From a virus (lineage: Duplodnaviria > Caudoviricetes): DNA of 35,576 nucleotides. A program made the translations under genes and the position numbers. The notes beneath the pieces were generated by a model. That model was not told the DNA's origin, made no database searches, and saw only the letters and a list, made by a program, of their open reading frames with translations. Numbering within the stretch: position 1 is the first letter of the stretch; each line of letters begins with the position of its first letter. The DNA lies in IMG/VR virus record IMGVR_UViG_3300044785_000013, positions 1 to 35,576 of that record; one strand, 5' to 3'. Positions 514-34,517 of the stretch are shown here, piece by piece.

Positions 514-776
514 GCAAACTACCTCAAGGCCCTGTTGTGATTCATGCGGATGAACTCGGCAAAGCGGCTCGCAAGGTGCTGCAAAAGTCCGCCATTGTGG
601 AGATTGCGTTTGACTTGCTGCGTGATGCCAGCCTAGGATATCCGCTCAAGGCACATAACGGAACAGTCACAGAGTGGTGGGGACAACCCACGCTCGACGC
701 GTGGGTCATCAAACACCGGTTACGCCCATTGCCCGTGACTGTGAACCGCGGGTCCGTCACTTTCTTTTCAACCTAA
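510..776 (+). CDS. Hypothetical protein, paralog A
   Basis: 88-aa ORF with ATGA coupling; alignable end to end with 836-1075. Confidence 0.85.
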   Translation: MSKLPQGPVVIHADELGKAARKVLQKSAIVEIAFDLLRDASLGYPLKAHNGTVTEWWGQPTLDAWVIKHRLRPLPVTVNRGSVTFFST

Positions 777-835
777 AACGCTGTCACGCGCGAGGGGCGG
801 CCTTGAGCGTAAGACCCCAAACCGGAAAGGACCCC

Positions 836-1075
836 ATGACACCTGCTCAATTGGGCAAGATCGCAAGCCGGGCACTTCAATCGCACCCCACTGTGGATAT
901 CCCGTTTGATGTGTTGAAAAGTGCCGGATTAGGATATCCCGCCACAATCCACAATGGCCGGGTTTTGGAGTGGTGGGCGCAAGACAAGCTGGATGCGTGG
1001 TGCACGACGCATCGCATACGTGTGTTGCCCATTCACTTCGCCAAGGGTTGCGTCGTTTTCTCTCGGGAGTTTTGA
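836..1075 (+). CDS. Hypothetical protein, paralog B
   Basis: ATG 836 follows an AAAGGA RBS; shares LGK..LQ..V.I.FD.L..A.LGYP...HNG.V.EWW.Q..LDAW...HR.R.LP with 510-776. Confidence 0.85.
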   Translation: MTPAQLGKIASRALQSHPTVDIPFDVLKSAGLGYPATIHNGRVLEWWAQDKLDAWCTTHRIRVLPIHFAKGCVVFSREF

Positions 1076-1077
1076 CC

Positions 1078-1263
1078 ATGGATGCCCCACGTAATGCGCT
1101 GGCCCGCAAAGATTACTCAGCCTGTGCCATCACGATTCGTTCCCTGTGGCGCTTTCGTCACTTCTCTTTGCCGCGGACCCGCAAGGATATCCGGGACGAA
1201 ATTCGATGGTTCATCATGTGCGCCAAGCGCGCAAAACAAGTCTTGAGGAGCACCGCATCATGA
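1078..1263 (+). CDS. Small basic hypothetical protein
   Basis: ATG 1078 follows GGGAG; packed tightly between its neighbours. Confidence 0.6.
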   Translation: MDAPRNALARKDYSACAITIRSLWRFRHFSLPRTRKDIRDEIRWFIMCAKRAKQVLRSTAS

Positions 1264-2415: not shown

Positions 2416-2705
2416 ACCCGATCGGCACGTTGGGCCAAGCGATGTTGGCTCAACAGGACACGCGCGAAGTCACGGCCCACGTCACGCAGGCGATCGATGC
2501 TCGCCTAGAACCCGGCACCTGGAAACTGCGCGAATTGATCAAGGGGCTTCGTTTGGTACGGGATCCCGGATATCCCGACCCGGCAAACCTCGCGGGGGTG
2601 TGGAAGCTGGACGGCACCAAACTCATCGAAGTCACCCCCCGAGAAAGTCACAGGCACCCGATCAGTGGGCACCTCGTGACTCGTCGCGGGTACAAGTCGT
2701 TTTAA
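2412..2705 (+). CDS. Hypothetical protein
   Basis: AAGGT RBS, ATG 2412; its stop overlaps the convergent primase stop. Confidence 0.65.
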   Translation: MNPIGTLGQAMLAQQDTREVTAHVTQAIDARLEPGTWKLRELIKGLRLVRDPGYPDPANLAGVWKLDGTKLIEVTPRESHRHPISGHLVTRRGYKSF

Positions 2706-5068
2706 GGTCCAGGCAGTTTGGGCAACTGCGCGGCCTGATAGTGCCGCGATATTTCTGCCGGGGATTGCAGGGCAAGCATCGGGTGGCCCTGGCGGATGAA
2801 AAGCTTCGGTTTCCCTCCGTCAGTCGCGATCACTTCCGGTACGCGCCCGTCCGGCAGGGCGGGGTGCCAGTCATAGCCCAGGTCCTGCATGATTTTGCGC
2901 CGGCTGTTCGGGGCAATGTTGCGCTTGATCCGTTCGAACAGCCGCCCCAGCGCGATTGAGCTGACCCAGCCCCCCGCAAAGCCCGGCTCATCACATTCGA
3001 TCGACTCCAGGATGTGCTGCTCCACGGACCCTAGTGACGCCCCGATTGCTTCCTCCGTGCTGGACGTGTCCGGTGCGCGAAAGCCGCGAGCGGGGTCCAG
3101 GTCGGGCGGAATTGGGTAGGTCCAAAGCATTTCCGACACCACTGCAAAGCCGGGCGGCTGCCCCGCGTACCGGTTCCGACCCTTCAACCAGTCAAACATG
3201 TCAATCAGGTAAGCGGCGGTGCGCTGTTCTCGCACCTGCCGCTCAGTCTGTTGTGCCGTGAAGAAAGGGGCGATGCGTCGATCGTTGCGGGTCTTTCGTA
3301 AACCATCCTTGTGGTTACTGTTCAGGATGAAATTACCGCACACCTCGGTTGTCACTTGGTCAACCCGCTTCGCTTCTATTTCCAACGCATCCCCGGTGAT
3401 CATCGGCTTGAGGTTCTCAAACACCTCCTCTTTCATCGCAGGGGTATAGATGTCTTCGACGCAATAGAGGGTGTGTCCGACCATCCAACTGTTAAATTGC
3501 GCAGTCAGCTTACTGGCGTGTGGCCAGTGTACGTACCTCTGCCCTATGGCTTCTGCCACGCATTTGGATAGGATAGTCTTGCCGTTCCCTTCAACACCTT
3601 GGATTAACGGGGCCCACTGAAACTTGATCCCCTGGCGCTGCACGCAGGCGGCCAAGTAGGCCAGTAGGATATCCCGATCCCGCGGCACGGGCAGGAGTCG
3701 CTCCAGAAGCCGCGTGAACGGGCTGTAATCACCGGCTATCCTAGGCACCTGCAGCGGCCACCACGTGTTGGCGGCTACCACGCCGTCCGGCAGGGTGATG
3801 AGGCTGCCTGGGGCTGCCAACGGACGGAAAACCGTTGTGTGTGCTCGGGGTGCCCGCAGCGCGTTTGACTGGATGAAAGCCTCCCAGGCGTCCCGGGTTA
3901 CTTTCAGGTTCGCGGTGTCCAGGTTATAAATGGCGCCGCCGTACCAGGCTTTGAAGTTTTCGGGTTTCACGCATTGGCCACCCGGAATCAGCACTTGGTG
4001 CTGATCCGCGATGTAGATGCAACCCGTGAAGAGGGTCACCTGATGTTCTACCGACACGAACGCTGAACCCGTCACACGTGCCGGCACCGCCGAACCCGGC
4101 GCGGCATCCACACGGGTGACGCCAGTTGGCAAGTTAGGCTCTTTGTCTTGCAGCACCTCCTTCTGCATGCCACAGGCTTTGGGGATCGTCAGTCCACAAA
4201 GGTACGTGACGTGCCGGTCCCATTTCTCCCGGGCCAGTTTGGATTGCCGCATCAGGCGTTCGATGCGTGGTGCGTCGCAACCAGTCCAAAAGGCCAGGTG
4301 CTGGGCGAGCGCTGCGTCAGCGCTGTTCCGGTCCCAGGTGTCGCCAGATGGGCTGGGGTATGCACGGGCTAGGGTATCCTGCCGGGCTTCCCACAGGTCA
4401 GCGAAGGATGCGCCACCACCGAACGCGGCGCGCGCCGACGTTGACTGCAATGCGCGCCGCAACAGGTCTTCGTCATCTACGGGGCCGCGCCAGTCTTCCC
4501 GGGGTCCCAAAAAATCCCCGACGTTTTCCACCACCTTCGGGGCGAAACCGGGGATCCGCTGCACCAACTGCACCAGGGCAGCGTCGTGCCGCGTGGCTGC
4601 GTCCCCCGTTGCGTTCCAACCCGTCAGGGCAATGAATCGTTTGCGGTGATACAGCTCAATGCGGTAGTCCGCATCCTTCGTGCCGTGCGGGGGAGGGGTG
4701 CCTGTGCCGATGATGTGCAGGCCCTCCCCGGATTGGGACACCTCCACTGCGGCGCCCGGGAAGAGCGCGCACACCTGTTGCGCAAACGTGGTCCAGGTGC
4801 CGTCGGGTTGTAGCTGGTGATCCAGATCGACGAAAAAGAACGGGTCCGTGTCAGCCAGGACAAAGCCCACGCCGAACGACTTACCGGCAGCCGTGGCGAT
4901 CGTCGCAGCGCGTTCGGCTGAAAGCCAGCAGGCGGGGTCATGAGCGTCATGCGGCCGTAAGGTGTGTGGGTGTACTGACACCTTGTCGGGTTTTGGGGTG
5001 GCAGTCACCAACTGCCACACGATGAACTGCTGGAACGCCTCTAAAGGAACCAACGGCGCGGGAAGCAT
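2702..5068 (-). CDS. NrS-1-like primase-polymerase fused to a helical bundle and an SF3/D5-type (DUF5906-like) helicase
   Basis: Prim-pol motifs FVDLDH, EVSQSGEGLHI, IELY..RFIALTG; helical bundle SADAALAQHLAFWTG..REKW; Walker A GVEGNGKT; NDRR motif. Confidence 0.9.
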   Translation of the reverse strand: MLPAPLVPLEAFQQFIVWQLVTATPKPDKVSVHPHTLRPHDAHDPACWLSAERAATIATAAGKSFGVGFVLADTDPFFFVDLDHQLQPDGTWTTFAQQVCALFPGAAVEVSQSGEGLHIIGTGTPPPHGTKDADYRIELYHRKRFIALTGWNATGDAATRHDAALVQLVQRIPGFAPKVVENVGDFLGPREDWRGPVDDEDLLRRALQSTSARAAFGGGASFADLWEARQDTLARAYPSPSGDTWDRNSADAALAQHLAFWTGCDAPRIERLMRQSKLAREKWDRHVTYLCGLTIPKACGMQKEVLQDKEPNLPTGVTRVDAAPGSAVPARVTGSAFVSVEHQVTLFTGCIYIADQHQVLIPGGQCVKPENFKAWYGGAIYNLDTANLKVTRDAWEAFIQSNALRAPRAHTTVFRPLAAPGSLITLPDGVVAANTWWPLQVPRIAGDYSPFTRLLERLLPVPRDRDILLAYLAACVQRQGIKFQWAPLIQGVEGNGKTILSKCVAEAIGQRYVHWPHASKLTAQFNSWMVGHTLYCVEDIYTPAMKEEVFENLKPMITGDALEIEAKRVDQVTTEVCGNFILNSNHKDGLRKTRNDRRIAPFFTAQQTERQVREQRTAAYLIDMFDWLKGRNRYAGQPPGFAVVSEMLWTYPIPPDLDPARGFRAPDTSSTEEAIGASLGSVEQHILESIECDEPGFAGGWVSSIALGRLFERIKRNIAPNSRRKIMQDLGYDWHPALPDGRVPEVIATDGGKPKLFIRQGHPMLALQSPAEISRHYQAAQLPKLPGP

Positions 5069-5074
5069 CGGGTT

Positions 5075-5461: not shown

Positions 5462-5465
5462 GGAC

Positions 5466-5738
5466 TCACGCTGCTGCGGGGATGGATAGGTGGCCCTCTT
5501 CGATCGGTTGCGCGACCGTGGGGCCCGTTTCCCGCGTCAGAGCCAGGTACCACCAGGGTCCAATCTGCGCAACCAACATGGGCCCGGGGATGCGCTTAGT
5601 GTTGCGGATCCATCGAATCGTGCGCACCTCAATGCCGCACAACTGAGCCAGGGTCGAGAGGTTTAGCCGGGGGTCCAACAGCCGGCGCTTCAGTTCCAGG
5701 CCCAAAGCGTGGTCTTCGGTTTCGTGGGGGTATCTCAT
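5466..5738 (-). CDS. Small XRE/Cro-like helix-turn-helix protein
   Basis: LSTLAQLCGIEVRTIRWIRN..R.P fits the HTH pattern. Confidence 0.65.
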   Translation of the reverse strand: MRYPHETEDHALGLELKRRLLDPRLNLSTLAQLCGIEVRTIRWIRNTKRIPGPMLVAQIGPWWYLALTRETGPTVAQPIEEGHLSIPAAA

Positions 5739-6217
5739 AGCGTGCCTTCTCCAGTTGCGAACCGCGCGTCCCCGCCGGCTGCTTGTACCAATTGAATGAA
5801 TTTCAGTTGCGCGGGTTCTTCATCTCTGCCGGTGTAAACCCACCCGGGTTTCTTCATTTCTCGCGCTAGGAACTGACCTAGGATAGTACCCACATCGCGC
5901 TGTTCGATTCGCCTTTTACGCAAGCCGATGAAGTCGGACGACTTGAACACTTTGTTGACGGCCGAGCTGTCGTTGGCCAGCCCGAACCGCAGAAACGAAC
6001 CATCTTGCATGTAGCCGGCGCCGCAGTTGTTGCGCCAGAGGTAGTGACCTAGCCGGGCAGCTTCGAGGCGGATGACGCTTGACACCCAGGCTTCGCTTTT
6101 GCCAGATTCGGCCGGCGCCGCAACGTGCCCAACCACCCCAGTGCGCGCCCGCAGGTCTTCCAAGGCCGCGTAGGGGATGCCCCACGTAAGCGCCCACTCA
6201 TGCAGTACGTCAGACAT
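5735..6217 (-). CDS. VRR-NUC-like PD-(D/E)XK nuclease (putative Holliday junction resolvase)
   Basis: SE..V, LWRNNCG, SSDFIG, AREMK, QLKF..GG.A.F motifs. Confidence 0.85.
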   Translation of the reverse strand: MSDVLHEWALTWGIPYAALEDLRARTGVVGHVAAPAESGKSEAWVSSVIRLEAARLGHYLWRNNCGAGYMQDGSFLRFGLANDSSAVNKVFKSSDFIGLRKRRIEQRDVGTILGQFLAREMKKPGWVYTGRDEEPAQLKFIQLVQAAGGDARFATGEGTL

Positions 6218-6551
6218 TAAACAACTCCATCTGGTCTGGTTCCCAACGGTTACCCTTGCTGCAGTTCGAACGCCAAGGGATCACCCGCAGGTTCCAAGAC
6301 ACCGTTAAGCCGCACACGCGAGGATGCGTCAGCGGCACGATGTGGTCAAGGGTATGCAGCATACCGGTCATCCGGGTCATTGCGGCAGCCCAGGCCTTGA
6401 GCGCGTACAAGTCCCACCGATCAACCCAGGGCGGTGCGGACCGGACTACGGCTGCGATGTACTTACGCCGCTGGTGGTTTTGAATCCAGTGTGGGATATC
6501 CCCGACAATCACGCGTTTGCGGGACCGACCAACATAGTCAACCATACTCAT
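6210..6551 (-). CDS. HNH endonuclease
   Basis: PPW...LDHIVPL...VCGL.V.WNL.VI...N..K.N. Confidence 0.85.
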   Translation of the reverse strand: MSMVDYVGRSRKRVIVGDIPHWIQNHQRRKYIAAVVRSAPPWVDRWDLYALKAWAAAMTRMTGMLHTLDHIVPLTHPRVCGLTVSWNLRVIPWRSNCSKGNRWEPDQMELFNV

Positions 6552-6554
6552 ATC

Positions 6555-6887
6555 CTAGCAATCCTTTTCGAGTTTCGAGGCGAACCACTGCACGATATAC
6601 GCGAAGCCTTCGGTTTCTAGGATGTAATCCATCCCAACGTACAGCGCTACAGCTTGCGCGGCGTGAGTGGCTTCGTGGGCTATAACTGCGGTTCGGTCGC
6701 ACGGCGGCGCCCACACTCCAGCCACGATGCGCAGGTCTGGTGCGTTTGACCAGCCGCAGGCGCCCAAAGCGCACGGATCGGCGCGGCGTGGAGGTGTCAG
6801 CACGATGGCGGCTTTCCTGTCGAACGCCGCCGCTGAACGAACGGTGTAGAACCAGCCGCAGGAATAGATTGGTATGTGGTATTTCAC
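6555..6887 (-). CDS. Small HExxH-motif (zincin-like) phage protein
   Basis: IAHEATHAA followed by ETEGFAY. Confidence 0.7.
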   Translation of the reverse strand: MKYHIPIYSCGWFYTVRSAAAFDRKAAIVLTPPRRADPCALGACGWSNAPDLRIVAGVWAPPCDRTAVIAHEATHAAQAVALYVGMDYILETEGFAYIVQWFASKLEKDC

Positions 6888-8497
6888 TAGGCTATCCTGG
6901 CAGTCAGTGTGGCGGCGTCAGCCGCGTTCAGGGTTTGGGCTGTCAGGACATCAATACCATACTGGTGAAAAAATCTGCGTTGTGCGGTGGATAAGTCATC
7001 ACCTTCGATCATCCGCCAGCCACCCCACTGCGCCATCCGTTCGCGCAGGGCGCGCTGGGCCTCCTGCCGCTCCCAGTGGTGCTTGCGCATCGCGCCGAAA
7101 GCCGCAGGCCCCACCGCATGTGCCAGCCCGGGATTCGGTGCGCCGTCTATCCGGTCACGTTCTCCGAGTAGCGCTGTGATGAACTCTTGAGACAGCTCAG
7201 TCAAATCACCGTCTACCTCTTTGGGGGTGCTCCGGCCAGCCGGCTCCGGGTAAAAACCGCAGTATGGGCAGACTTTCAGTACCCGCTCATATGGCTGTAT
7301 GCACTCCCGGCACACCGTCAGTGGGATGGCGTCCGTGGCACCAGAGCGCACCCCACGGGACTGGTTGTCGAGCGTCCACACCCTGGGGATGTTTGGAAGT
7401 TTGTGTTCCCGGACATTGCCGACGTGATCGATGATGATCGCGAATTCCTTGCCTTCTAGGATACGCACGGCCCGACCAAATTGCTGCAGGTACAGCGCGA
7501 GGCTTTTTGTGGGCCGTGCCATGCTCACGACTTCGATTGCTGGTAAATCGAAACCCTCACCGAACATGTCAACGTTGACCAGTTGCAGAATCTCGCGGCG
7601 CTCGAACCGGCGCAGGATAGCCGAGCGAAGCACCGTAGGTGTCTGGTATGTCACCACTTCGGCGGGCACCCCGCGATCGTTGAACGCTTGCGCGTACTTT
7701 TGGGCTTCCTCAATATCCACTGCGAAGGTGACACCCAGCTTGCCAGCCGCATATTTCAGGTAGCAGCGCACCACGTCGCCGACGATCTTCTTGCTTGCGC
7801 GTACCGCCGCGCGCAAGGGTTTGTCGGAGTATTCCCCGCTCGCACCAATCGGCACATTCTGCAGTTGGATATCCGAGGGCGGGCAGAAGACACGGTACCG
7901 CGATAGGTACCCCTCTGCAATAAGCTGGCTCATCGTGGGTCCGACAATCATGTGATCCATGACGCCGCACGCGTGACGCCCTAGACCTTTCCCGTCCGCA
8001 CGTTGCGGTGTGGCCGTCACACCGAACCCGTATGCGTTCGGAAAGTGGCTGATAGCCCGGCCCCATTTGTTGTCGCGCAAGAGGTGGTGCGCTTCGTCCA
8101 TCACCCACAGGCCTACGCGCCCAAACCACGGATCATCGCGGCTGTTGGCATCAAGTAGCATGTCAACGCCGATTACGCGGCACTGACTTTCAGGGTGGTG
8201 GAAGTGGTGGCCGAATCGGTCGATTTGAAGCGCTATGATGTCCCGCTGCACGGCCGGGGGTGCCCCCAAGGCATGTCGAATCCCGTTTTTGCACAAAGCT
8301 AGGCTGATTTGCGAAACCAGCTCGCGCCGGTGCGCCATCACGCAACATGCTCCACCATAGTTGCGCACGATGTCTGAGAAGATCACCGTTTTCCCAGACC
8401 CCGTGGGGGCCACAGCTAGGACGTTGCGACGCTTCTGCCAAGCCTCGTACGTCTGGCCAACAATCGATTTTTGGAAGGGATGCAGTACGATTGACAT
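6887..8497 (-). CDS. SF2 DEAH-box helicase with a C-terminal Zn finger
   Basis: APTGSGKT, DEAHH, TATP, EGFD, QQFGRAVR, CREC..CPYC. Confidence 0.95.
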   Translation of the reverse strand: MSIVLHPFQKSIVGQTYEAWQKRRNVLAVAPTGSGKTVIFSDIVRNYGGACCVMAHRRELVSQISLALCKNGIRHALGAPPAVQRDIIALQIDRFGHHFHHPESQCRVIGVDMLLDANSRDDPWFGRVGLWVMDEAHHLLRDNKWGRAISHFPNAYGFGVTATPQRADGKGLGRHACGVMDHMIVGPTMSQLIAEGYLSRYRVFCPPSDIQLQNVPIGASGEYSDKPLRAAVRASKKIVGDVVRCYLKYAAGKLGVTFAVDIEEAQKYAQAFNDRGVPAEVVTYQTPTVLRSAILRRFERREILQLVNVDMFGEGFDLPAIEVVSMARPTKSLALYLQQFGRAVRILEGKEFAIIIDHVGNVREHKLPNIPRVWTLDNQSRGVRSGATDAIPLTVCRECIQPYERVLKVCPYCGFYPEPAGRSTPKEVDGDLTELSQEFITALLGERDRIDGAPNPGLAHAVGPAAFGAMRKHHWERQEAQRALRERMAQWGGWRMIEGDDLSTAQRRFFHQYGIDVLTAQTLNAADAATLTARIA

Positions 8498-8519
8498 GGC
8501 CGGGATCCTATCCTAGGAT
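8491..8519 (+). promoter_or_regulatory. Sigma70-type promoter for the rightward replication block
   Basis: TTGACA (8491-8496), 17-bp spacer, TAGGAT (8514-8519), upstream of an AAGGA RBS and ATG 8547. Confidence 0.8.
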
Positions 8520-9616: not shown

Positions 9617-10740
9617 GCCAGCAAGGCCACGCGTTCTTGCCGCCCAGCGGGGCGGCAGCCTGGCGTCTCTGCGCGCTTTGGCCAACGATGAACCAGCAGT
9701 TTCCAGAGCTGGAACCGTCCGAGGCCAGCCAAGAAGGCACCGCCGCTCACTGGGTGTGGAAGCAGCTTTGGGATGGTGTCCCGGTACCTGCAGGCACCAT
9801 TGCCCCGAATGGCGTTCGAGTGGATGAAGAAATGCTGGGTGCTGCCGAGCTGTTCTGCAGCACCATCCACACCCCTATGGCCGACCTGCGGCAAGCCACG
9901 TTGACCGAAGTGCACGTCACCGGAACCCGAATCCACCCCACGGCCAACGCAGGCACCCCGGACGTGTCGCGCTACAAACACCAACTTGAAGTGAAAGAAT
10001 TCAAGTACGGTCACAAGCATGTGCCGGTCTTTGAAAACTGGCAGATGATCAACTATGCCGCACTGTTGATGGACCGACACGGCGTTGACGGCATTCGTGA
10101 TCAAACGCTCGAAGTGGAACTGACCGTGGTGCAGCCACGCAATTATTCCGCGGAGGGCCCCGTACGAACATGGCTGGTACGAGCGGCGGACCTGCGGCCA
10201 TACATCAACGATTTGCGCAACGCCGCTGACCGGGCCACGCAACCCAACCCAACAGCCACACCTGGGCCGGTGCAGTGTGAATACTGCCCCGGCCGGCATG
10301 CATGCCCCGCTGTCCAGAACACATCTTTTGCGGCTGTCGATTACAGCCAACAGCGTGCGTTGCCACTGCGCATGAGCCCCGAAGCCGTTGCGCGGGAGCT
10401 GTCCACACTGACGTGGCACGAAGACATGCTGCGCGCCCGAAAGTCAGGGCTCGAAGAACAGCTCAAGGCCGAAATCAAGGCTGGCCACCGCACGCCCGGG
10501 TGGCATCTGGAGGCGGGCTCTGGCCGGGAGGTGTGGCAGAAATCCTTAGAGGAGGTGCGTATCCTAGGCACCCTGTTCGGCGTCGAAATGCAGAAACCCG
10601 CATTGATCACGCCAACACAGGCCCGCGCCGCCGGTGTCCCGGATACCATCATCAGTTCGTACAGCGTGCGCCCGCCCGGCGCGTTGAAGCTGGTCCAAGA
10701 CAACGAAGCCTTGGCTCGGCGCATTTTCGGAAAGAATTGA
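9613..10740 (+). CDS. DUF2800-like (Cas4-related) PD-(D/E)XK exonuclease
   Basis: H..L.PS.A..W..C, EGTAAH, GTPD, EFKYG, N.QM..YA, VQPR, C.YC....C. Confidence 0.9.
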   Translation: MSQQGHAFLPPSGAAAWRLCALWPTMNQQFPELEPSEASQEGTAAHWVWKQLWDGVPVPAGTIAPNGVRVDEEMLGAAELFCSTIHTPMADLRQATLTEVHVTGTRIHPTANAGTPDVSRYKHQLEVKEFKYGHKHVPVFENWQMINYAALLMDRHGVDGIRDQTLEVELTVVQPRNYSAEGPVRTWLVRAADLRPYINDLRNAADRATQPNPTATPGPVQCEYCPGRHACPAVQNTSFAAVDYSQQRALPLRMSPEAVARELSTLTWHEDMLRARKSGLEEQLKAEIKAGHRTPGWHLEAGSGREVWQKSLEEVRILGTLFGVEMQKPALITPTQARAAGVPDTIISSYSVRPPGALKLVQDNEALARRIFGKN

Positions 10741-11110: not shown

Positions 11111-11144
11111 CCCCACTTTCCGCGCAACCTAACTAGGACACCCT

Positions 11145-11414
11145 ATGAGTGTAAATTTAAACAGCGGTAAGCCGCAGCAAGCCTCCCTGCTCTACGATGG
11201 CTTGCCGCGCCCAATCCCGACGCTTCAACCCCACCAGCAACGCGTCGTGGCTGAGAAAACCGAACTGGATGCCCGGTGTGAGAAGCTCGCGGCGTTCATC
11301 AACGGTGCAATTTTCCAGACCATGCCCGAGGCCGAGCGCACACGGCTGGAACGGCAACACACGTTGATGACCGAGCTTTCCGCGATACTCGGTGAGCGCA
11401 TCGCCGCTTTCTAA
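11145..11414 (+). CDS. crAss001_48-related small helical protein
   Basis: QPHQQRVV.EK.EL...KL..FI...L.RQ..M....ILGERI..F. Confidence 0.8.
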   Translation: MSVNLNSGKPQQASLLYDGLPRPIPTLQPHQQRVVAEKTELDARCEKLAAFINGAIFQTMPEAERTRLERQHTLMTELSAILGERIAAF

Positions 11415-11432
11415 ACCTAGGATATCCGAGAA

Positions 11433-20397: not shown

Positions 20398-20403
20398 GGG
20401 GGC

Positions 20404-21648: not shown

Positions 21649-21656
21649 AACTCACC

Positions 21657-22892: not shown

Positions 22893-22905
22893 GTTTCTCT
22901 CCTAG

Positions 22906-23112
22906 TTACGCCAAGTTTACCCGGGCGGGAGGCAGCCTCGGGGCGATCAACGCGAGTTGCACGTCAATGACAGCTACTTGGTCCTGAATTTCCTGTCGGC
23001 GTGCGATTACGGTTGCGTTTGTCAACGTCAGAAACTCATCCTGCAGTCTCTTTTTGTATTCACGCAATCGTTGTGTTTGCTCAACAGCGATGATCTGGTC
23101 GGCAGTGGCCAT
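22906..23112 (-). CDS. Small coiled-coil protein, possible tail-fibre chaperone
   Basis: 68 aa, directly downstream of the fibre gene. Confidence 0.6.
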   Translation of the reverse strand: MATADQIIAVEQTQRLREYKKRLQDEFLTLTNATVIARRQEIQDQVAVIDVQLALIAPRLPPARVNLA

Positions 23113-23114
23113 AG

Positions 23115-24983
23115 TTAACTCGGTTCGAAGATTGAATATACGAATGTGGATGTTTCTAGAACGCTGGTGCTTGTTATCGTGAATGAGGTTCCGGCAGCCT
23201 TCGCATAGCTGATGTGCCCCAGTGTTCCACCAGGGGTTTCTCTAGTAAGCTGAATACGGCTGTTAGCGGTAACTGAGGTGTTGTTTACAACAAGAGTGCC
23301 AGCCACGAGATTACCGGTCAGCCCCTGCTTGCAGTTAGACCCTTCTTTGATAGAAAGCCCTGTGCCGGCTGTCGGTATAGATACTCCTGAACTACTAAAC
23401 AAGGCCCTATTTACAGCATTTGTGGAGATGTAGCACTGGTTCGATCCAGGGACTATTCCAAACGTCTCTTCTCCTGCGTTTCCTGTCACGGCTATCTGCG
23501 TCGAGTCGGAGTACAACCCTCCAGGCGTGCCGCCTGTAACTTTAATGATGAAACCGGCTGCCCCGACCACCCTAAGTGGAGCGCCGTCTGCGTTCGTCGT
23601 ACCAATCGCAACTTTACCGGTACTGTCTACTCTCGCAAATTCAGTGCCGTTTGTAGTCAGCCCAAGAGTATTCGCTGCAGGTAGATACACCCCGTTGGCA
23701 GGTACGGAAGACCCGGTAGGTATTAACGCCGCCGCCGACAAACTACCAGAAGCTACGCAAGTGCCGCCCTGGTTGAACTGGAACATTGACCCTGCCGCGG
23801 AGGCTGTCCCGAAATGCACGCCAAGCGTGTCAAGCCCACCGACACCGGATGATCCTTGGAAATAGCTCATGCCGAAGGCATCAGCATTTGCGAATCGCCA
23901 TATCGGGTTTCTGACATTCGACGCGAATGTAGTGCTTGAGAAACCAGACGCCCCTGCCGCGGCAACGCCTGCAGTTGATACGAGACCAGCAACAGAAACG
24001 CTATTGCTGAAGGCGTGAGTGCCGCTCCACGTTGGTGAGATGCCCTGTGACAGCGCCGGAGCACCATCCGACCGCATGAACGTCGTGGCCGACCCGTTCA
24101 CTGCCGTCAGGCCGACACTCGCTGATGGGTTCGCCGCCACTGGCAGTTGTGCAGTCGTGGCCAGCGTGCCGGAAGTCGGGAACGTCACGGCCGTGGTGCC
24201 GGTCATCGTGAACGTGCTGGCGAACGCGCCGGAGATGGTGATGGTGCTTGCGGCGTTGTTTGCGATACCGGTACCGCCGAAGTTGGCTGCCACCGCCGTG
24301 CCTTGCCAAACCCCCGTACCAATCGTTCCGAGCGTAGTAATGCTGGCTTGCCCGACGTAGGTGGCCGCGATGTCAACAACTGGATTGCCCGAAACGCCAT
24401 CCCCGTTCGTCAAGGTGATCCGCGTAGCGGTACCTGTGATGGTCCTCTGTGCCCAGGTATCCGCAGATGTCCGTACGGCAATCCCAGTGCCGCTCAAACC
24501 CTCCACCGCCGACAGGTCATTCGCCAGAGCAAACGTCAGCGTCAACTGACCGACAGAAGGGCCAGTTTCTTGAGTAACTAAAAGACCCTCGGCCGGGTTT
24601 TCGAGTATCAAGTTTTGTACTGCAAACGCCCAAGTTTCATCCCCGCGCCAGAAAGAATTCGAGCTGGCCCCTGTGCCGCCATTCAGCCGGCTGGGTGGGA
24701 GGTTTCCCGCCACGTCCTGATCCAGGCGTACCGGCCCGTACGTCGGCGCACCCGTGGGATTCCCGTGGAGCACCTGTTGTGGTGACCCCCGGGAGCCGAT
24801 AGTTCGAAGCGTGTTGACGTTGGAGCTGGTCATCACCAGTTGGTTTGGTTGCATCCCAGCGACCGGCGCACTAGCCTCTCCATTCGACGCGTCTAACCCT
24901 TGAAAAAACGCACGCCACTCGGGCTTGACCAAGCCGGTTTCGACATCCACAAGCGGCACGTTCCAGAGGTTTGGTTTCGGCAT
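23115..24983 (-). CDS. Tail needle/fibre protein (putative receptor-binding protein)
   Basis: N-terminal P.VD..TG....W..FF right after the hub gene; GGTG repeats; T/S/G-rich. Start refined to ATG 24983. Confidence 0.8.
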   Translation of the reverse strand: MPKPNLWNVPLVDVETGLVKPEWRAFFQGLDASNGEASAPVAGMQPNQLVMTSSNVNTLRTIGSRGSPQQVLHGNPTGAPTYGPVRLDQDVAGNLPPSRLNGGTGASSNSFWRGDETWAFAVQNLILENPAEGLLVTQETGPSVGQLTLTFALANDLSAVEGLSGTGIAVRTSADTWAQRTITGTATRITLTNGDGVSGNPVVDIAATYVGQASITTLGTIGTGVWQGTAVAANFGGTGIANNAASTITISGAFASTFTMTGTTAVTFPTSGTLATTAQLPVAANPSASVGLTAVNGSATTFMRSDGAPALSQGISPTWSGTHAFSNSVSVAGLVSTAGVAAAGASGFSSTTFASNVRNPIWRFANADAFGMSYFQGSSGVGGLDTLGVHFGTASAAGSMFQFNQGGTCVASGSLSAAALIPTGSSVPANGVYLPAANTLGLTTNGTEFARVDSTGKVAIGTTNADGAPLRVVGAAGFIIKVTGGTPGGLYSDSTQIAVTGNAGEETFGIVPGSNQCYISTNAVNRALFSSSGVSIPTAGTGLSIKEGSNCKQGLTGNLVAGTLVVNNTSVTANSRIQLTRETPGGTLGHISYAKAAGTSFTITSTSVLETSTFVYSIFEPS

Positions 24984-24984
24984 T

Positions 24985-26202
24985 TCATCTAACCCCAAAG
25001 TCCATCGTTACGGGGTTGAATGGCGCGTCGTCCGTCATCCTCAGTTCGAATACCCGTCCGTTCAACCCATCCGCAGCCCCCAACTGGTTGAACTCGACTG
25101 CAGTGCGGTACTTGCCCCGGGCACCGACGGAAACCCGTTGCCAGCCGGACCAACCATCTTGTGGGTCGTCTTTCCAGCGAAGCATGGCCACCCCTCCCGT
25201 GGCGCGCTCACACACCAACTGGGCTTTGGGGTAGTGCGCCATACGGCCCTGATCCTGACCCATGGCTGGGCAAATTCGGGTGCGCACCAGTGGGTCACCG
25301 GCGAGGCTGTGCGCGTCGTGGTCAGCGTAGTACAGCCGCCCCTCTCGGTCACCGAAGTAATTTCGGCCGTAGGCAAATGCATGACACCGGGCCCGCCAGC
25401 GGGTGAATCTGCCGTTTCTTAGTTCAGCAATTTCTGTCCACTGCCGCGTCGTAGCGTTGAATACCTGCGTGGCGTCAAGTCCGGGAACCTGCAGTGCGTA
25501 AAACTCGTCCTTCAAAAACGTGAAAGTAAAGGCCTCTGCCGTATACAAACTCCGGCCCCGCAACCGCTCCTCCACGGCTCTATCGGACACCACCGCCACG
25601 CCTTGCCCGGCGCCAGCCATCACCACCACAGCTTGACCTCGCCGGCCCGAAGTAGCCAACCACATGGGGCGACCGGCGCATTTCTGCATGGCGTAGGGCG
25701 CTGCGCTACCAAACTCAAGTGTGGCGCCGTCATACCGCTCAAACACCGCGCTGGTGCCTGTATTGGTGTGCACTTCGGTGCCAATCGCTCCGGCGAGCCA
25801 CAAATCACTGTTCACGGCAACCATAGATACCAACACGTCGGGGAGAGACTCCGCCGACTTAAAATCCAACGAGCTTTGGACCAAGGCATTGCCGGGGTCT
25901 GTCCACCCATACCGCTGTGAGTTTCTTTGGATGGCCACCGTTCGTTCGTTCACAACGGCAAAACGTCGGCCGGGCGGGAAATTTGGAGCTTCTTGGAGGG
26001 TCATACCATCCCAGATATACAGGTATGTGCCGTCGCAAACCTGCAGTTGGGTTAGGTTTTCGTCAAAAGTCACCACCCCCGCAGAACTGTTCAACGTTCC
26101 GATAGTAACTGCGCTGCCCTCTTTAGGCACCTGGTACAGCGTAGCGCCGCGTGCGGCGTAGAGCTTGTCTTTCCAATTAAATAGTCCGCGAATTTGAGCC
26201 AT
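24985..26202 (-). CDS. P22 gp10-like tail hub/DNA stabilization protein lacking its N-terminal ~50 aa
   Basis: IRGL..LY...G..LY, F.SAES.PD, FY.L..P, GD...G.LY, GKY, RVFE....D. Own ATG at 26202 (TGATG overlap, GGGAG RBS). Confidence 0.88.
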   Translation of the reverse strand: MAQIRGLFNWKDKLYAARGATLYQVPKEGSAVTIGTLNSSAGVVTFDENLTQLQVCDGTYLYIWDGMTLQEAPNFPPGRRFAVVNERTVAIQRNSQRYGWTDPGNALVQSSLDFKSAESLPDVLVSMVAVNSDLWLAGAIGTEVHTNTGTSAVFERYDGATLEFGSAAPYAMQKCAGRPMWLATSGRRGQAVVVMAGAGQGVAVVSDRAVEERLRGRSLYTAEAFTFTFLKDEFYALQVPGLDATQVFNATTRQWTEIAELRNGRFTRWRARCHAFAYGRNYFGDREGRLYYADHDAHSLAGDPLVRTRICPAMGQDQGRMAHYPKAQLVCERATGGVAMLRWKDDPQDGWSGWQRVSVGARGKYRTAVEFNQLGAADGLNGRVFELRMTDDAPFNPVTMDFGVR

Positions 26203-26726
26203 CAGCGATTCTCCCGCAGCCATCGATTGCTGTTGCCGATGCCGACGCGTGTGCTCGGCCACAGCCGGGCCCCGCCTGGGCCTGGTCTCCAGTCGTACCG
26301 CGGCACCGGGTCCCTCTGGTACCCCCGGCGCTTGAGCACGCCGTACGCGATGGCCTCCCAGTGGTAGCTGCCCTCTGGCCAGTTGATTGCACGCAGGGCC
26401 GCGACGTTGCACACCACGCCGTGGTGTGGGTGCCCCCGCTTGTCCAGCTTGCCGTGCACCGTTTCCGCGGCCCACCCGATGGTGTGCCCCTGGTCTGCCG
26501 CGCGCAGGGCTAGCGCGTGCATGGCCGGGACGAAGCCGAAGTCGAGCACATCATCACCCCCGTCCACGAAGCAGAACCACTCGCAGCGGCTGGAGTCGAT
26601 GCACTCCAGCCGGCGCAGGTAGAGCGCCGCACAGGTCGGCTCGGCCAACGGCACGCACCGGAGCGTCGGCACCCCGGGCAGGGCCTGGGCGCCGACGGAA
26701 ACGAAGTCGATCAAGGGTTCGGCCAT
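26202..26726 (-). CDS. Putative GT-A (GT2-like) glycosyltransferase-fold protein
   Basis: R......EWFCFVDGGDDVL resembles the GT-A beta-strand plus DxD region; short (174 aa). Confidence 0.5.
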   Translation of the reverse strand: MAEPLIDFVSVGAQALPGVPTLRCVPLAEPTCAALYLRRLECIDSSRCEWFCFVDGGDDVLDFGFVPAMHALALRAADQGHTIGWAAETVHGKLDKRGHPHHGVVCNVAALRAINWPEGSYHWEAIAYGVLKRRGYQRDPVPRYDWRPGPGGARLWPSTRVGIGNSNRWLRENR

Positions 26727-27583
26727 GGCGCCACCGGTGGGGTGAAGTTTGCGGCTGAGGCGGATCCGCCGATGCTAGCGCGGCAGTCCTCCAGGTAGAT
26801 TGCCGATCCAACCTGACGCATTTCCATGCGGTTTATTGGGTTCACCAGTTCAAGTAAACCCGTCGCCGCAGTCTGCGCCGACAACGTGCCGTCCACAAAC
26901 AGAACTAGTGCCGTCCCTGTATATAGTAGTCTCAGGTGGACCCAGATATTGGTTGGAATTGGATCTGCACTAAATACCTCCACAGAGGTCGATCCGTCGT
27001 CAAACCTGGCAAGAGCATCAAACTCGTCATTGACGAGCAAATCAAACTCTGCAATAAGCGGGTAGGCGAAAGTGCCTACCGCCAACGAGGTGCGGTCGTT
27101 TACCGCAACAGAACCCGATTGCACGTAGAACCAACCGTCAATTTGCAACGTAGAAACAGCGCTGGTGCTGTAGTCATCCGGTATTTCCGGGTCAGTCTGT
27201 GGCGCGTCCCGACTCCAAGTTATGTCCCCTGTACCGCCGAGAAGGAATAGACCGAATACGGGGTACGGGAAAGTGGCCAACAACACCCAGTCGGTACTGT
27301 CCGACGTCCATGTGGCCCCTGTCTGGTCCAGTGCGCTGGTAGGCCCACCGATGAACTCAGCGATCCCCTCTGCCGTTGCCGTCTCCGTCATGTGGAATAG
27401 GAACAGCACAATTTCAGTCGCCGCAAACGGTTCCACCTCCACCAGCCCGGGGAAATCCTTGAAAACCCAGGATGTGCGTTCGTTGCCGGGTTCGATCGGC
27501 ACCGGGTACATGCCGATGGTGCGCTGGACGCTGGCCGGCTTGCTGACCAGCGGGTAGGTGGGGCCAACGAACGAGATTTTCAT
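26711..27583 (-). CDS. Fusion of a gp10-like N-terminal peptide and a LamG/concanavalin A-like domain
   Basis: Residues 1-50 (FVGPTY..S..ASVQRTIGMYP.PIE....FPGL) match the hub N-terminus. The rest has GWFY, W.HL...G....LFVDG, YLED.R and NFTPP.APW, typical of phage LamG domains. Confidence 0.8.
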   Translation of the reverse strand: MKISFVGPTYPLVSKPASVQRTIGMYPVPIEPGNERTSWVFKDFPGLVEVEPFAATEIVLFLFHMTETATAEGIAEFIGGPTSALDQTGATWTSDSTDWVLLATFPYPVFGLFLLGGTGDITWSRDAPQTDPEIPDDYSTSAVSTLQIDGWFYVQSGSVAVNDRTSLAVGTFAYPLIAEFDLLVNDEFDALARFDDGSTSVEVFSADPIPTNIWVHLRLLYTGTALVLFVDGTLSAQTAATGLLELVNPINRMEMRQVGSAIYLEDCRASIGGSASAANFTPPVAPWPNP

Positions 27584-27585
27584 GG

Positions 27586-28245
27586 TCAGAAGTAGTCGGC
27601 GGTGGGTGCTGGGGTGTCTGTGACCTGGGCGCCGGCAGCGAGGATATCCGACTCCCAGGTGTCTCGATCACCACGCCAGCGGTTGATGCGCAACTCGTCC
27701 ACGTCAAACTCATCGGCCAGGTCCAACGCCACCAGGTTTGCGAATGAACCCATGGCGTCTGATCGCATGTCCAGCGCTTCGGCGTCTGACGAGTCCGCCC
27801 CGTGCTGCTGGTATGTCAGCTTGAGGGTGTATCCGGTGTCTGGGACCGGATAGAGGTACATGGTCGCCCCATCAAAGAACACCATACACGGTTGTCCGGC
27901 CCTGGCCTTATCTGGGATATCCTGATATGTGCGGTGGTCGATGATCTTCACTGGCTCATCTTGATCGCCAACCCGAACGTGCACCGTGGTGGCGTAAAGG
28001 AAACCAACATTGATCAAGTCAACCGTCGGGTCCCCACTCGTCAAAACGACGTCGGCCGCAGCACCGGATGTGGAGAACCACAGGGTGTTGCGGCCGTGAA
28101 GCTGTTTCAGCCGAAGGTCTATGCCTTCGTTGATGACTGCCCGGCGCTCCGGGTGGAGGCTATTTCCCGCGGCTTTGATTCCCAGCCGCCTTGCCACCTT
28201 GTCCCGGAGCTGCCGGCGGTTGAGAGTAAACAGGTACGTTGCCAT
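27586..28245 (-). CDS. Head-tail adaptor (P22 gp4-like)
   Basis: R.LG, G.P, YLYPVPD, LA.DLA.EF; GGAGG RBS; gene order. Confidence 0.8.
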   Translation of the reverse strand: MATYLFTLNRRQLRDKVARRLGIKAAGNSLHPERRAVINEGIDLRLKQLHGRNTLWFSTSGAAADVVLTSGDPTVDLINVGFLYATTVHVRVGDQDEPVKIIDHRTYQDIPDKARAGQPCMVFFDGATMYLYPVPDTGYTLKLTYQQHGADSSDAEALDMRSDAMGSFANLVALDLADEFDVDELRINRWRGDRDTWESDILAAGAQVTDTPAPTADYF

Positions 28246-31032: not shown

Positions 31033-31034
31033 AC

Positions 31035-32936
31035 CTACGATGGTACTACTTCTTGCGGCTGGCTGGCCGCGCTCACGGCTGCCGCGAGTTGTTGTTGTTC
31101 TCCGATCAACTTCTGCTGCTCCAACCTCAACTCCGCGGTAATCGCCCTCTTTTCCATTTCAAACAGCTTGCGATCTGCCTCCAACTGCGCTTGTTGGGTT
31201 TTGATGTCATTCATCTGCACTTGCTCTGTCAACTGCTGCATCTGCTCTTGCATCTGAACGACTTCAGGCGGCGGCCCTTTCTTGTCCTCACCTCTGAGCT
31301 TACGAAGGATCTTGTCTTTCCCCCGGAGTGACGAGGCCTCCACAAGGGCTTCGAACAGAACGGGCGGCATTGCACCCGCGTTGGGGGCAATCTCAGCCAG
31401 ACGGTCGAACTGCTCCCCCTGCAGAGATGCACTCGCGGGTTGCTCACCCATTCGGATGTCAACGTCCAGTTCCCCGACGTTATTCCGCAACCCTACAACC
31501 TGCTGCATTTCTGGGTCATTTTGGGCTTGCTCCTCAGCCATCGCCAAATCTTCTGGGCTCACATCGGGTTGTTGCTTGAATTGCTCCAACAGCTTCTCCC
31601 CCAACGTCATTGGCACGTTCAACCCAACAAACCGAATGTTCTCCTCGTCCTCTGTCACTCGGATCCACTTCTCAGCAGTCCAGAATTGCCGAATTCGATT
31701 CCACAGCTTTCGGTAAACCTCCAGCTTGAATGCTTCCCAGGTGGAAAAACATGGGCCTACTTCATTCAACCCTTGTTCACTGCGTTGCTCCAGTGCCCGG
31801 CCACTCATCACACGGCGCTCGGTGCCAGCGAGCGCCGCATTGACCCCTACTGAGTCAATTTCGGCTTTCGCTTCACTGCCAAGTCGTTGGTGTGCATCCG
31901 CCAGTTCCAGGTTATCTAGCATTTCGATCTTCTTACCTGGCCGAGTCTCTACCACTCCATTCGGGTCGGCCAACTCTCTTTTCATCTTGTTGATGTCTTC
32001 TACCGTACCGCGCTCCATTTGCACGCGATTGGAATTCAACAAGTGCATGGCTTTGCTTCGCCGCTTGTTAATTTCGTCCTGAACGCTCATCCAAGCTTTC
32101 ACCATGCCATATCGATTGCCCTCTTTATCGACGAAGCACGATGAGAACACGAATCCAGGTTCGGTCACCTGGTCCTCATTGATCCAGGGGGACTCGATCA
32201 CTTCTAGGATAGCGGATCGCGTGAACTGCGCGAAGTACCATGTATCCCCCTCTTTGAAATAGCATTCGGCAACCCGGATACGCTTCCTTTTCGGGTCACT
32301 CCACTTCGTGCGGGGCGTATCGTCGTATGTATCCTGCCCGTACCACTCTTCGCCTGAGTTTTCTAGGATATCCGCTCGGTTCGGCCATTTCAGCTTGGCT
32401 TGCTTCAGGTCCATCCACAGAAACTGGCCCCTCACCAGTGAGTCAGACCAGTCCGGGTTTCGCGAATGGACGTCACCCCACATCCGATCCCATGATATCC
32501 ACTTGATGTAGATGCATGGCTCCCCATCCGGTTTCTTCTCCACCGAAATATCAACCCCACCAGCACCTTCGATGATGTGGTTGAGAAACACCCAGCCGCA
32601 CAACTGGTCCCAAGCGTTGGAGTCCAGCACGTACTTCAGGGCATCTGACGCGGCACCGGCCGACTGGTCATCACTGGGGGTGTTGCGTGGGAACGCCCGA
32701 GGCTCAGCCCGCCGGCTGGACTCCAGGCCCCGCAGCGAATTGATTTTCGGCGCGATGCGGTTGTAGGTGACCACAGGTTGCCGGCGAGATTTCAGCCTCG
32801 CAACCTCCTCCTCGGTCCACTGCTTTGAGTCGTAGTAGTCGCGTTCTCGTTCGCGTTGGCTGCGTTCCGGCCGGGTGGTTTGCTCCCACTCCTCGAAATA
32901 GTCAACCAATTGCGTGAGTAGCTCTTGCTCGGTCAT
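31035..32936 (-). CDS. Portal protein (P22 gp1-like)
   Basis: DYYD..QWT, R.QP....NRI..KI, YG.V....QDEINKRRSK, SGRA, W..EKWIRVT; C-terminal coiled coil. Start refined to ATG 32936 (AGGAG). Confidence 0.93.
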   Translation of the reverse strand: MTEQELLTQLVDYFEEWEQTTRPERSQRERERDYYDSKQWTEEEVARLKSRRQPVVTYNRIAPKINSLRGLESSRRAEPRAFPRNTPSDDQSAGAASDALKYVLDSNAWDQLCGWVFLNHIIEGAGGVDISVEKKPDGEPCIYIKWISWDRMWGDVHSRNPDWSDSLVRGQFLWMDLKQAKLKWPNRADILENSGEEWYGQDTYDDTPRTKWSDPKRKRIRVAECYFKEGDTWYFAQFTRSAILEVIESPWINEDQVTEPGFVFSSCFVDKEGNRYGMVKAWMSVQDEINKRRSKAMHLLNSNRVQMERGTVEDINKMKRELADPNGVVETRPGKKIEMLDNLELADAHQRLGSEAKAEIDSVGVNAALAGTERRVMSGRALEQRSEQGLNEVGPCFSTWEAFKLEVYRKLWNRIRQFWTAEKWIRVTEDEENIRFVGLNVPMTLGEKLLEQFKQQPDVSPEDLAMAEEQAQNDPEMQQVVGLRNNVGELDVDIRMGEQPASASLQGEQFDRLAEIAPNAGAMPPVLFEALVEASSLRGKDKILRKLRGEDKKGPPPEVVQMQEQMQQLTEQVQMNDIKTQQAQLEADRKLFEMEKRAITAELRLEQQKLIGEQQQLAAAVSAASQPQEVVPS

Positions 32937-32960
32937 GTGGGTATCTCCTGGCATCCGGCA

Positions 32961-34517
32961 TCATACCGTCCGCCAACTATCCTCGCCGTCGTCTGCATCC
33001 TCAAACGCCTTGTCCCAGCGATCCTGGGGTTTCGCGTCCGCGGTAACCGGCACGATTGCCTCGTGACCCATGTCGATCGCCCGACCCATGATCCCCGAGG
33101 CGTCGGTGAAATCCTTCCCGCCGGCCGGAAACTTACACAGCTCGTTGATTGCCCGGTCGCCCTCCGGTCCCTCCCGGACGAACACCTTGCCCATGCTGGC
33201 CATGGCTTGGAACGATTGCGCCTTCGCCTCTTTGTCACTTCCGTGCGGTGTGATCGGCTCTATCCGAACGAACGTGTTCTTTTCGATCATCATCCGGGTC
33301 ACGAACCCCTTCACGGATTTCCAGTTGTTGTCATCCTCCGGGAACCACGCAAACGGGTCCTTGTCCTTGACCCGTGGGATGATCCAGTCCGCAAAAATGT
33401 CCATCGTGCACCGGCCTAGGATGTACTCATCCAGGTAGATAGCGCTTTTGCTGTCCTCGTACCAGAACTGGCCGCAGTTCTGGTCATTTCCCTCTGTCCC
33501 AGCGGGAGCGTGGTCAGTCACCAGGTATGGGTGACAATACTTCGGCAAGTCCCTGAATCGACGGAACCACTCCCGCTTGAAGAAATCCCCCTCCAAACTG
33601 TTCGGCAGTTGCTGAAACAGCGACGCCCAGGTGCGCGGCTTTGCTTGGTACTGGGCCCAGTGGCGCTCGGTGAACCACTCCGGCCACAGATACTCCCCGC
33701 GCTTGCGCCCCAGCGGGTCATCGTCCACGTCGCACATGGCCTGCAGGCAGATCACGTGCCACACCTGGCCATCGCGGCATAGGATATCCCCCGACTGCCC
33801 CGCCCACCCCTTCGGCAGGATGTTCCCGGCCAGGTCATCTTCCGCCCACCGCGTCTGGATTAGCAGCACCCAAGCTCCGGGGGTCAAACGGGTACTCAGC
33901 GAATCGTCGTATTCGTTCTGAACGCTCTTTTTCACCGTATCTGAATCGGCCTCTTCGCGGTTCTTGTACGGATCGTCGATCACCAACCCACCAGCCCGGT
34001 TCCCGGTGACGCCCGACAAAATCCCCCGGCTCATGTATTCGCTGCCGTTGGTGAGCGCGAACTCATCCGAAGCACGGCTGTCGTTTGTCAAACGTACGTC
34101 AAACGTCTCTCGATGGCGTTCGTCCTGAATGAGCTGTTTCGTGCGGCGGCCGTGCTTGCGAGCCAAATCATCCCCGTAGCTGGTCAGGATCAACCGCCGG
34201 TTTGGCTTGGCGCTCAACCACCACGCGGGGCCAACCACACTGGCATATGTGCTCTTTGCGGAGCCGGGGGGCATTAGGACCATCAACCGGCCGTAGGGGG
34301 TCTCCGTCATCTTCTGGAAAGCCCGGAGAAGCAGGACGTGGTGGGACCCCAGAACCGTTTCGATTGGAGCAAACGCCGTGTCCATGTCCATATCGTCAGC
34401 CCAGCTTGCGTGCGCGGGCCGCCCCGGGACAGGCACGCTTTGGGCATATCGAACCAGGTCCCTTTGCATTTCCTCGCGAAGGATGATCTCCTTTGCGGCT
34501 TGTGAAGGTGTGGTCAT
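32961..34517 (-). CDS. terL: Terminase large subunit
   Basis: MPPGSAKS Walker A, TGNRA..IDDP Walker B, QTRW..DDLAG, LWPEWF, W.SLFQQ.P, C-terminal nuclease ending FP.G.KD..DA. Likely start ATG 34517. Confidence 0.95.
   Translation of the reverse strand: MTTPSQAAKEIILREEMQRDLVRYAQSVPVPGRPAHASWADDMDMDTAFAPIETVLGSHHVLLLRAFQKMTETPYGRLMVLMPPGSAKSTYASVVGPAWWLSAKPNRRLILTSYGDDLARKHGRRTKQLIQDERHRETFDVRLTNDSRASDEFALTNGSEYMSRGILSGVTGNRAGGLVIDDPYKNREEADSDTVKKSVQNEYDDSLSTRLTPGAWVLLIQTRWAEDDLAGNILPKGWAGQSGDILCRDGQVWHVICLQAMCDVDDDPLGRKRGEYLWPEWFTERHWAQYQAKPRTWASLFQQLPNSLEGDFFKREWFRRFRDLPKYCHPYLVTDHAPAGTEGNDQNCGQFWYEDSKSAIYLDEYILGRCTMDIFADWIIPRVKDKDPFAWFPEDDNNWKSVKGFVTRMMIEKNTFVRIEPITPHGSDKEAKAQSFQAMASMGKVFVREGPEGDRAINELCKFPAGGKDFTDASGIMGRAIDMGHEAIVPVTADAKPQDRWDKAFEDADDGEDSWRTV

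Follow-up and report, generated by a model that had tools for sequence, protein, structure and literature searches.

Does a short palindrome that recurs throughout a bacteriophage genome mark binding sites for a protein and, if so, for whose protein? The question is raised by a phage contig of 35.6 kb (IMG/VR record IMGVR_UViG_3300044785_000013, positions 1 to 35,576; hereafter the window, meaning the whole stretch of DNA that was analysed), which has 61% G+C and comes from an uncultured phage of sediment and freshwater. In the window, the 8-base palindrome GGATATCC occurs 15 times and the half-site CTAGGATA/TATCCTAG 12 times. An earlier description of this DNA, the original prediction, had listed these sites together with near-copies at 6887 and 4369 (2 and 3 mismatches to the full 14-mer, respectively), and every coordinate was exact. 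The two lists coincide at 4 places, giving 23 loci, or 24 with a TAGGATA-only site at 3568. The perfect 14-base palindrome, which had been taken as the motif, has no occurrence in the window. We found that the GGATATCC-centred motif is a real, lineage-specific dyad, and that it is very probably a site at which a protein binds double-stranded DNA.

The sites are far more numerous than expected. A Markov model of order 2 predicts 0.34 copies of GGATATCC and 0.14 of CTAGGATA, and a model of order 3 predicts 1.0 and 0.23. Within genes, GGATATCC occurs 13 times, against a mean of 0.84 (maximum, 4) in 1000 genome-wide synonymous shuffles and of 2.0 (maximum, 8) in 1000 per-gene shuffles; for CTAGGATA, the corresponding figures are 8 against 0.28 and 0.47. 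The observed counts were reached in 0 of 1000 shuffles of either kind, so the enrichment claimed earlier is independent of peptides and codon use. The two words rank as the top two over-represented 8-mers under both the Markov and the codon-aware models. Where the encoded peptide would permit GGATATCC, the word is present at 13 of 19 positions, with 0.85 expected. An earlier count (14 of 20) included one doubtful open reading frame (ORF), as does the count by reading frame, in which all three frames carry the word (3 of 5, 2 of 4, and 9 of 11 positions). The runner-up palindrome fills 3 of 13 compatible positions, and use of the remaining 255 palindromic 8-mers falls short (131 vs. 164), on which ground a general palindrome-perfecting mutation was rejected. 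CTAG alone is not enriched (48 observed, about 50 expected). The palindromes CAGCTG, GTCGAC, CTCGAG, GAGCTC, and AGATCT have zero copies in the window; the genome thus avoids palindromes generally, yet collects GGATATCC.

The fitted motif is a graded dyad, ctaGGATATCCtag, consisting of the core GGATATCC and weaker CTA/TAG flanks. Information amounts to about 0.8-1.3 bits per base centrally and less than 0.2 bits in the flanks. There are about 24 strict sites and about 50-60 soft sites. As a palindromic reading would predict, a dyad model was preferred over a free model, narrowly by the Akaike information criterion (-137 vs. -134) and clearly by the Bayesian information criterion (-93 vs. -40). 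Because the complete flank is never present at both ends of a site, the true form may still be an asymmetric 11-mer, CTAGGATATCC. Three one-mismatch variants are enriched, namely GGCTATCC (5 observed, 1.1 expected), GGAAATCC (6 and 1.6), and TGATATCC (5 and 0.9), and 7 of the 12 variants are at zero. Such graded tolerance fits a protein-binding site. The orientation of half-sites within genes (9 vs. 3) matches the peptide opportunities (expected, 0.48 vs. 0.11). The HipB-type spacing TATCC-N8-GGATA has 0 copies.

The pattern is confined to the lineage of the window. Thirteen related phages fill 5 of 173 GGATATCC-compatible positions (in machine-called genes); each of their genomes has 6-19 compatible peptides, as many as the window, and seldom uses them. 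We compared orthologous stretches at 15 in-gene sites (16 were tried, and one had no orthologue). The core peptide is kept in 23 of 457 stretches, the core DNA is kept in 3 of those 23, and 9 of 457 stretches score at least 10 bits. At the adaptor site at 27912, the window encodes YQDI and the relatives L018, L017, and L021 encode YQAI, which suggests that the motif may have driven an amino-acid change. A family-wide motif was rejected, as the pattern is absent from 72 replication-module loci, 80 capsid loci, and 19 longer genomes. It is repeated in none of 178 other IMG/VR loci that carry one of three exact 14-mers (56, 79, and 43 loci). In bacteria, TAGGATATCC, with 7 copies in the window, has at most 8 copies in any of 401 Pseudomonadota genomes (present in 197, none in 204), and CTAGGATATCC has at most 9 copies in any of 61 cyanobacterial genomes. 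A scan of GTDB for the perfect 14-mer, which covered 120 of an estimated 310 stretches, showed no motif-saturated genome. The idea of a host chromosome-type motif therefore found no support in the phyla sampled. That the word is so confined, and so scarce in bacteria, suggests a reader encoded by the phage itself, which we consider probable. The sequence itself is no assembly artefact, since contigs from runs of two other studies show zero differences across the sites at 3568, 3664, and 13658; no RNA datasets were among the listed holders of the window sequence. The dataset in which the sequence is best represented, a sediment metagenome, may be its source, and relatives at roughly 85% identity occur in freshwater runs as short contigs.

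Several words in other genomes resemble the motif at first sight. The candidate analogue AATCATGA in phage B2 was rejected as largely start-codon context, and that of L008/L009 as located in promoters; in these two genomes the palindrome TTACTAGTAA lies between the -35 and -10-like boxes of several promoters (e.g., L009 13463, 16639, 17384, and 17811). A weaker analogue of the window motif is the dispersed word GGTA(A/T)TAC in L010 (G414). The 20 kb of L193, part of a 95-kb IMG/VR contig with 39% G+C, are saturated with (G/T)CTAGG words (e.g., CCTAGC 43 vs. 8 expected, CCTAGA 42 vs. 8). Rumen Bacteroidaceae/Prevotella loci (L231, L245, L277, L286, and others) have intergenic CTAGG/CCTAG arrays spaced by about one helical turn around the 14-mer. 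Some relatives are enriched in several restriction-like palindromes, the opposite of the usual avoidance: L002 (SppYZU01; CTGCAG 51/15, GATATC 36/9.5, TTANTAA 23/7), L139, L144, and L152, and also L102, L130, and L150 (CTCGAG in the last two).

Most sites in the window lie within genes. At the left end, two small paralogous genes on the plus strand (510-776 and 836-1075, spanning 510..1075) contain three: CTAGGATATCCGCT at 633..646, in codons for L-G-Y-P; a core-only site at 892..905; and a site at 929..942, again in L-G-Y-P codons at the position paralogous to 633. Core sites follow at 1182..1195 (in a doubtful ORF or intergenic) and at 2565..2578, in gene 2412-2705; in close strains the latter is represented by two loose contig ends with one- and two-mismatch variants, too few to count. 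The primase-helicase gene (2702..5068, minus strand) contains the TAGGATA half-site at 3568..3581 (peptide GKTILS), a site at 3664..3677, the half-site TATCCTAG at 3731..3744, and the near-site CTAGGGTATCCTGC at 4369..4382 (13.3 bits). The endonuclease gene 5735-6217 contains the half-site CTAGGATA at 5878..5891, which precedes the start of the candidate reader gene described below by about 146 bp. A core site at 6491..6504 is in an endonuclease VII-like gene, the half-site at 6545..6558 covers a stop codon and AGGA at a gene junction, and the near-site CTAGGCTATCCTGG at 6887..6900 (14.8 bits) covers the helicase stop codon; within the helicase gene are a half-site (7456..7469) and a core site (7864..7877).

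Between the divergent helicase and 8547 genes, a half-site at 8503-8516 overlaps the spacer and -10 box of a predicted sigma-70-like promoter on the plus strand (8491..8519; TTGACA-17-TAGGAT), which by consensus match, at 10/12, is the best of positions 1-18,200. Further sites are a half-site at 10554..10567 in the exonuclease gene; the near-site CTAGGACACCCTAT at 11133..11146, at the start of gene 11145 (10.6 bits); the top-scoring site CTAGGATATCCGAG at 11417..11430 (17.6 bits), directly upstream of the gene for the single-stranded DNA-binding protein (SSB; 11433-12554); and, in the DNA polymerase gene, a core site at 13658..13671 and CCGGGATATCCTAG at 14895..14908. At the tail collar gene, a half-site (18020..18033) covers the ribosome site. 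The ejection, tail, and head-closure genes at 18034..27638 are without strict sites. Beyond them, the adaptor gene (27586-28245) contains sites at 27639..27652 and 27912..27925 (peptide YQDI), the portal gene a half-site at 32204..32217 and CTAGGATATCCGCT at 32363..32376, and the large terminase gene a site at 33779..33792. The placement at gene junctions that had been noted holds for 4 of the 43 gene starts checked, with the motif within 19 upstream bases, but there it doubles as the AGGA ribosome site. The absence of exact copies from 18.1-27.6 kb was also borne out: the site-free gap (18,020-27,639) has P = 0.012 under uniform placement, and 16.8-27.5 kb is cold per opportunity too (GGATATC at 1 of 12 vs. 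33 of 59, P = 0.003). Spacing in the left arm is random (coefficient of variation 0.91, P = 0.51).

The leading candidate reader is a 90-residue Cro/C1-type (XRE) helix-turn-helix (HTH) protein encoded at 5466..5738 on the minus strand, which the original prediction had already named. Its predicted structure has four helices (pLDDT about 90), the top Foldseek rows are XRE proteins (E 0.15 or worse), its Atlas neighbours are HTH_3 proteins (feature score 0.93-0.94), and its Pfam match has E 0.14. These results, weak but concordant, suggest a Cro/C1-type fold. Homologues are rare (three among 5.8 billion proteins), and the protein is absent from the 34 relatives searched. Its gene occupies the slot in which the relatives have another regulator: in 16 of 19 relatives, a TetR-like gene lies between the primase gene and that of the PHROG 93 endonuclease, which we label VRR-NUC-like on our own assumption, and the window has no such gene. 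We regard the HTH protein as the possible reader, at a likelihood somewhat below even.

The relatives also have a different palindrome. TGAC-N6-GTCA has 5-14 copies in 8 of the 19 relatives, mostly over -35-like boxes, and none in the window. Eleven of 16 relatives have a copy upstream of the SSB gene, and the genes for primase, exonuclease, and polymerase are preceded by one in 0 of 16, 0 of 18, and 0 of 16, respectively; the window motif likewise has its best site upstream of SSB and none upstream of those three genes. From this co-occurrence, the TetR-like protein may bind TGAC-N6-GTCA. The system of Jedunavirus JD001, Scuro, and related phages has in common with the window the replication module, a 14-bp dyad, the regulator slot, and an SSB-upstream copy, but its copies are mostly intergenic, whereas the more numerous strict and soft sites of the window are mostly in genes. 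A shared palindrome, TTGACG-N4-CGTCAA, coincides with -35-like boxes ahead of replication genes, and a TetR-like gene adjoins the primase gene, in L004 (JD001; 14 sites, e.g., 33475 and 35804), L003 (Scuro), G005, G417, G425, G428, and G429, a candidate for a family-wide operator system in cultured phages. A search of the literature on Jedunavirus, promoters, and TetR found nothing on the TGAC-N6-GTCA palindrome.

Our preferred explanation, at a likelihood just short of even, is that a phage-encoded dimer, probably the HTH protein, acts as a repressor at early promoters and is also bound at many sites within genes. A two-subunit Cro-like protein would dock on the dyad sites and, when docked, would repress early promoters; its operators would be the copy that overlaps the 8491-8519 promoter and the one that precedes the SSB gene. 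It would also sit on dozens of in-gene sites. These copies might be roadblocks, or they might form a sink whose capacity rises with the number of phage genomes and thereby sets the moment at which early and replication genes are switched off; these are the least supported steps of the proposal. We infer that the sites were produced by selection, not by biased mutation. A bolder version, which we think rather unlikely, is that this lineage swapped the TetR-like regulator and promoter operator of the family for the Cro-like protein, and then rewrote its genome with the site of that protein wherever possible, including amino acids in the adaptor, primase, and helicase. The result would be a genome-wide self-tag or copy-number counter of a lytic phage.

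Several observations weigh against repression by the HTH protein. Its assignment is weak by each single method (Pfam, Foldseek, and Atlas). Classic 434-type operators are read at their outer bases, and the information in the window motif sits in the central 8 bp. Promoter-like sites are at chance level (4 vs. 4.2 in shuffles), and promoter repression alone leaves selection on the mid-gene sites unexplained. The SSB site covers the ribosome site, 3-16 bases before the start, and the family palindrome lies 60-211 bases upstream. L153, a 1,751-bp contig with a 62% identical HTH homologue, has no strict site, where about 2 would be expected at left-arm density. The zero count of TGAC-N6-GTCA is not significant alone, with about 0.4-2 expected per genome, and the relative G427 lacks both the TetR-like gene and the palindrome, yet has no substitute motif. 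As the contig is incomplete and starts within a gene, the gene of the reader may lie in the missing part.

The strongest alternative, which we consider unlikely, is that the motif serves as a self-tag for packaging, compaction, or nuclease protection, and that its reader is a different phage protein (one from a gene in the missing part, either of the 510/836 paralogues, the product of gene 8547, or the small terminase). The word is several hundred times denser in the window than in the sampled bacterial genomes, which would make it an excellent mark by which to distinguish phage DNA from that of the host. The sites mostly fall in the middle of genes, at random spacing; three are inside the 510/836 paralogues, and the genome encodes several nucleases. 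However, a 9.6-kb stretch is untagged, though the restriction-type words avoided elsewhere in the window are avoided there too. No DNA-binding fold could be assigned to the paralogues (best Z 4.6; best E 0.21), and their LGYP is conserved at the protein level in distant homologues; they are weaker candidates than the HTH protein. There is no strict site in or near the small terminase gene.

It is distinctly less likely that the reader is a transcription factor or nucleoid protein of the host, and that the phage gathered sites to recruit it or soak it up. Bacterial proteins can plausibly read the 14-mer, since in 20 Mycobacterium/Actinomycetota loci it forms a conserved 18-bp palindrome, TACTAGGATATCCTAGTA, which precedes the same gene start in 19. 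In L225, L227, L229, L235, L236, and 15 more loci, TACTAGGATATCCTAGTA lies 30-50 bp before this gene and is a likely operator; the gene is putatively mmsA (methylmalonate-semialdehyde dehydrogenase). The half-site may resemble DtxR/IdeR and RcsB boxes. However, the bacterial scans described above showed no saturated genome, which is indirect evidence as to the host, and no unrelated virus shares the pattern among the 178 loci with an exact 14-mer. The head and ejection genes of the window are of podovirus type, and such genes are known from Gram-negative hosts, not from mycobacteria.

Very unlikely is a role of the motif as the recognition site of the PrimPol-type primase of the phage, marking priming points on either strand. 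The N-terminal domain of the primase-helicase matches solved primase chains (E 3.5e-25), which we take to be the NrS-1 enzyme. NrS-1 PrimPol offers a precedent, as it recognises an 8-nt site, TTTGGTTA, although the same work reports higher efficiency for a short GTG(A/G) site, and both sites lack palindromic symmetry (PMC8718748). Relatives with 43-50% identical primases show no comparable word, and a single-strand reader explains neither the dyad nor the 9.6-kb gap.

Slightly less likely still, the sites may be unselected and built up by biased repair or a methylation-linked process, as proposed for HIP1 of cyanobacteria. HIP1 is likewise an 8-bp palindrome far over-represented, also in genes, but it is a feature of host chromosomes tied to methyltransferases (PMC4390886, PMC5861425), whereas in the sequences searched a single phage lineage has the window word. 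High occupancy and the seven absent one-mismatch neighbours resemble conversion. However, enrichment extends to three of the neighbours and to half-sites with their flanks, other palindromes are under-used, there is no methyltransferase match among the window proteins, no sampled host shows the drive, and the gap region would have undergone conversion too. Finally, a by-product of D-I-L/L-G-Y peptides, TAG stops, and AGGA ribosome sites, to which the four ribosome-site copies and the conserved LGYP might have pointed, is refuted by the shuffles, by the comparison of orthologous stretches, and by the relatives that rarely use equally compatible peptides.

Among known systems, the closest likeness is to Cluster O mycobacteriophages, whose dispersed 17-bp dyad repeat, TGTTCGGNNNCCGAACA, is likewise described without a known reader or function (PMC4351075). 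As in the window, the dyads are scattered and denser in one part, many are in genes and mostly away from promoters, and the phage is not obviously temperate; the Cluster O repeat is absent from its host (PMC4351075), and the window word is rare in the bacteria sampled. In contrast, the Cluster O repeat has invariant 7-mer arms and 14 of its 34 copies fall between genes, whereas the window site is short, degenerate, never perfect, and mostly in codons, at two thirds of opportunities (PMC4351075). The stoperators of the Cluster A mycobacteriophages L5 and Bxb1 are 20-30 genome-wide sites of one phage HTH protein, few of them in promoters, with a motif that diverges with the repressor between lineages (PMC6550527). 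The logic is similar to that of sites for the candidate HTH protein, but stoperators follow the direction of transcription and have their role in lysogeny, whereas the window core is palindromic and no integrase or repressor family matched the proteins scanned in the 35.6 kb (PMC6550527). For a parS/ParB or KorB lattice, clustered or even high-fidelity sites would be expected, whereas spacing in the window is random, and no ParB/KorB family matched the proteins scanned from the incomplete genome. The parS and stoperator architectures suggested earlier are not supported.

As to gene content, the contig begins within a CTLGDE-type hexapeptide-repeat gene (1-513, plus strand), of which the ORFs called at 26 and 36 are shadow frames. 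Besides a replication module (primase-helicase, helicase, exonuclease, SSB, and DNA polymerase), it carries genes of podovirus type for the head, head closure, and ejection. In phages B2, SppYZU01, and Scuro and in the Jedunavirus group, the primase has 42-50% identity to that of the window. The closest head module is that of L018, with 66-90% identity in 6 of 8 common genes; the scaffold (40%) and small terminase (47%) are more divergent. At 35200-35510, inverted repeats around an AT-rich tract and about 4 direct 14-bp repeats (GTACAACCAGCCCC, 35333-35390) look origin-like. CCACCACC/GGTGGTGG is enriched window-wide (19 vs. 5 under the codon model), as in JD001, and may be Chi-like or a Gly/Pro codon effect. 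Literature searches, mostly without subscription journals or supplements, found no paper on the motif (GGATATCC, TAGGATATCCTA) and none on DUF7662.

The reach of these results is limited to one uncultured phage with an incomplete contig. What is new is the motif, the near-saturation of its coding opportunities, and the apparent swap of regulators. To the known dispersed phage dyads, our finding adds an unusually strong signal of selection within coding DNA. It also provides a comparative contrast, in which close kin of the replication module use a different regulator and a different palindrome, and it singles out a 90-residue protein and a 14-bp duplex as a candidate pair.

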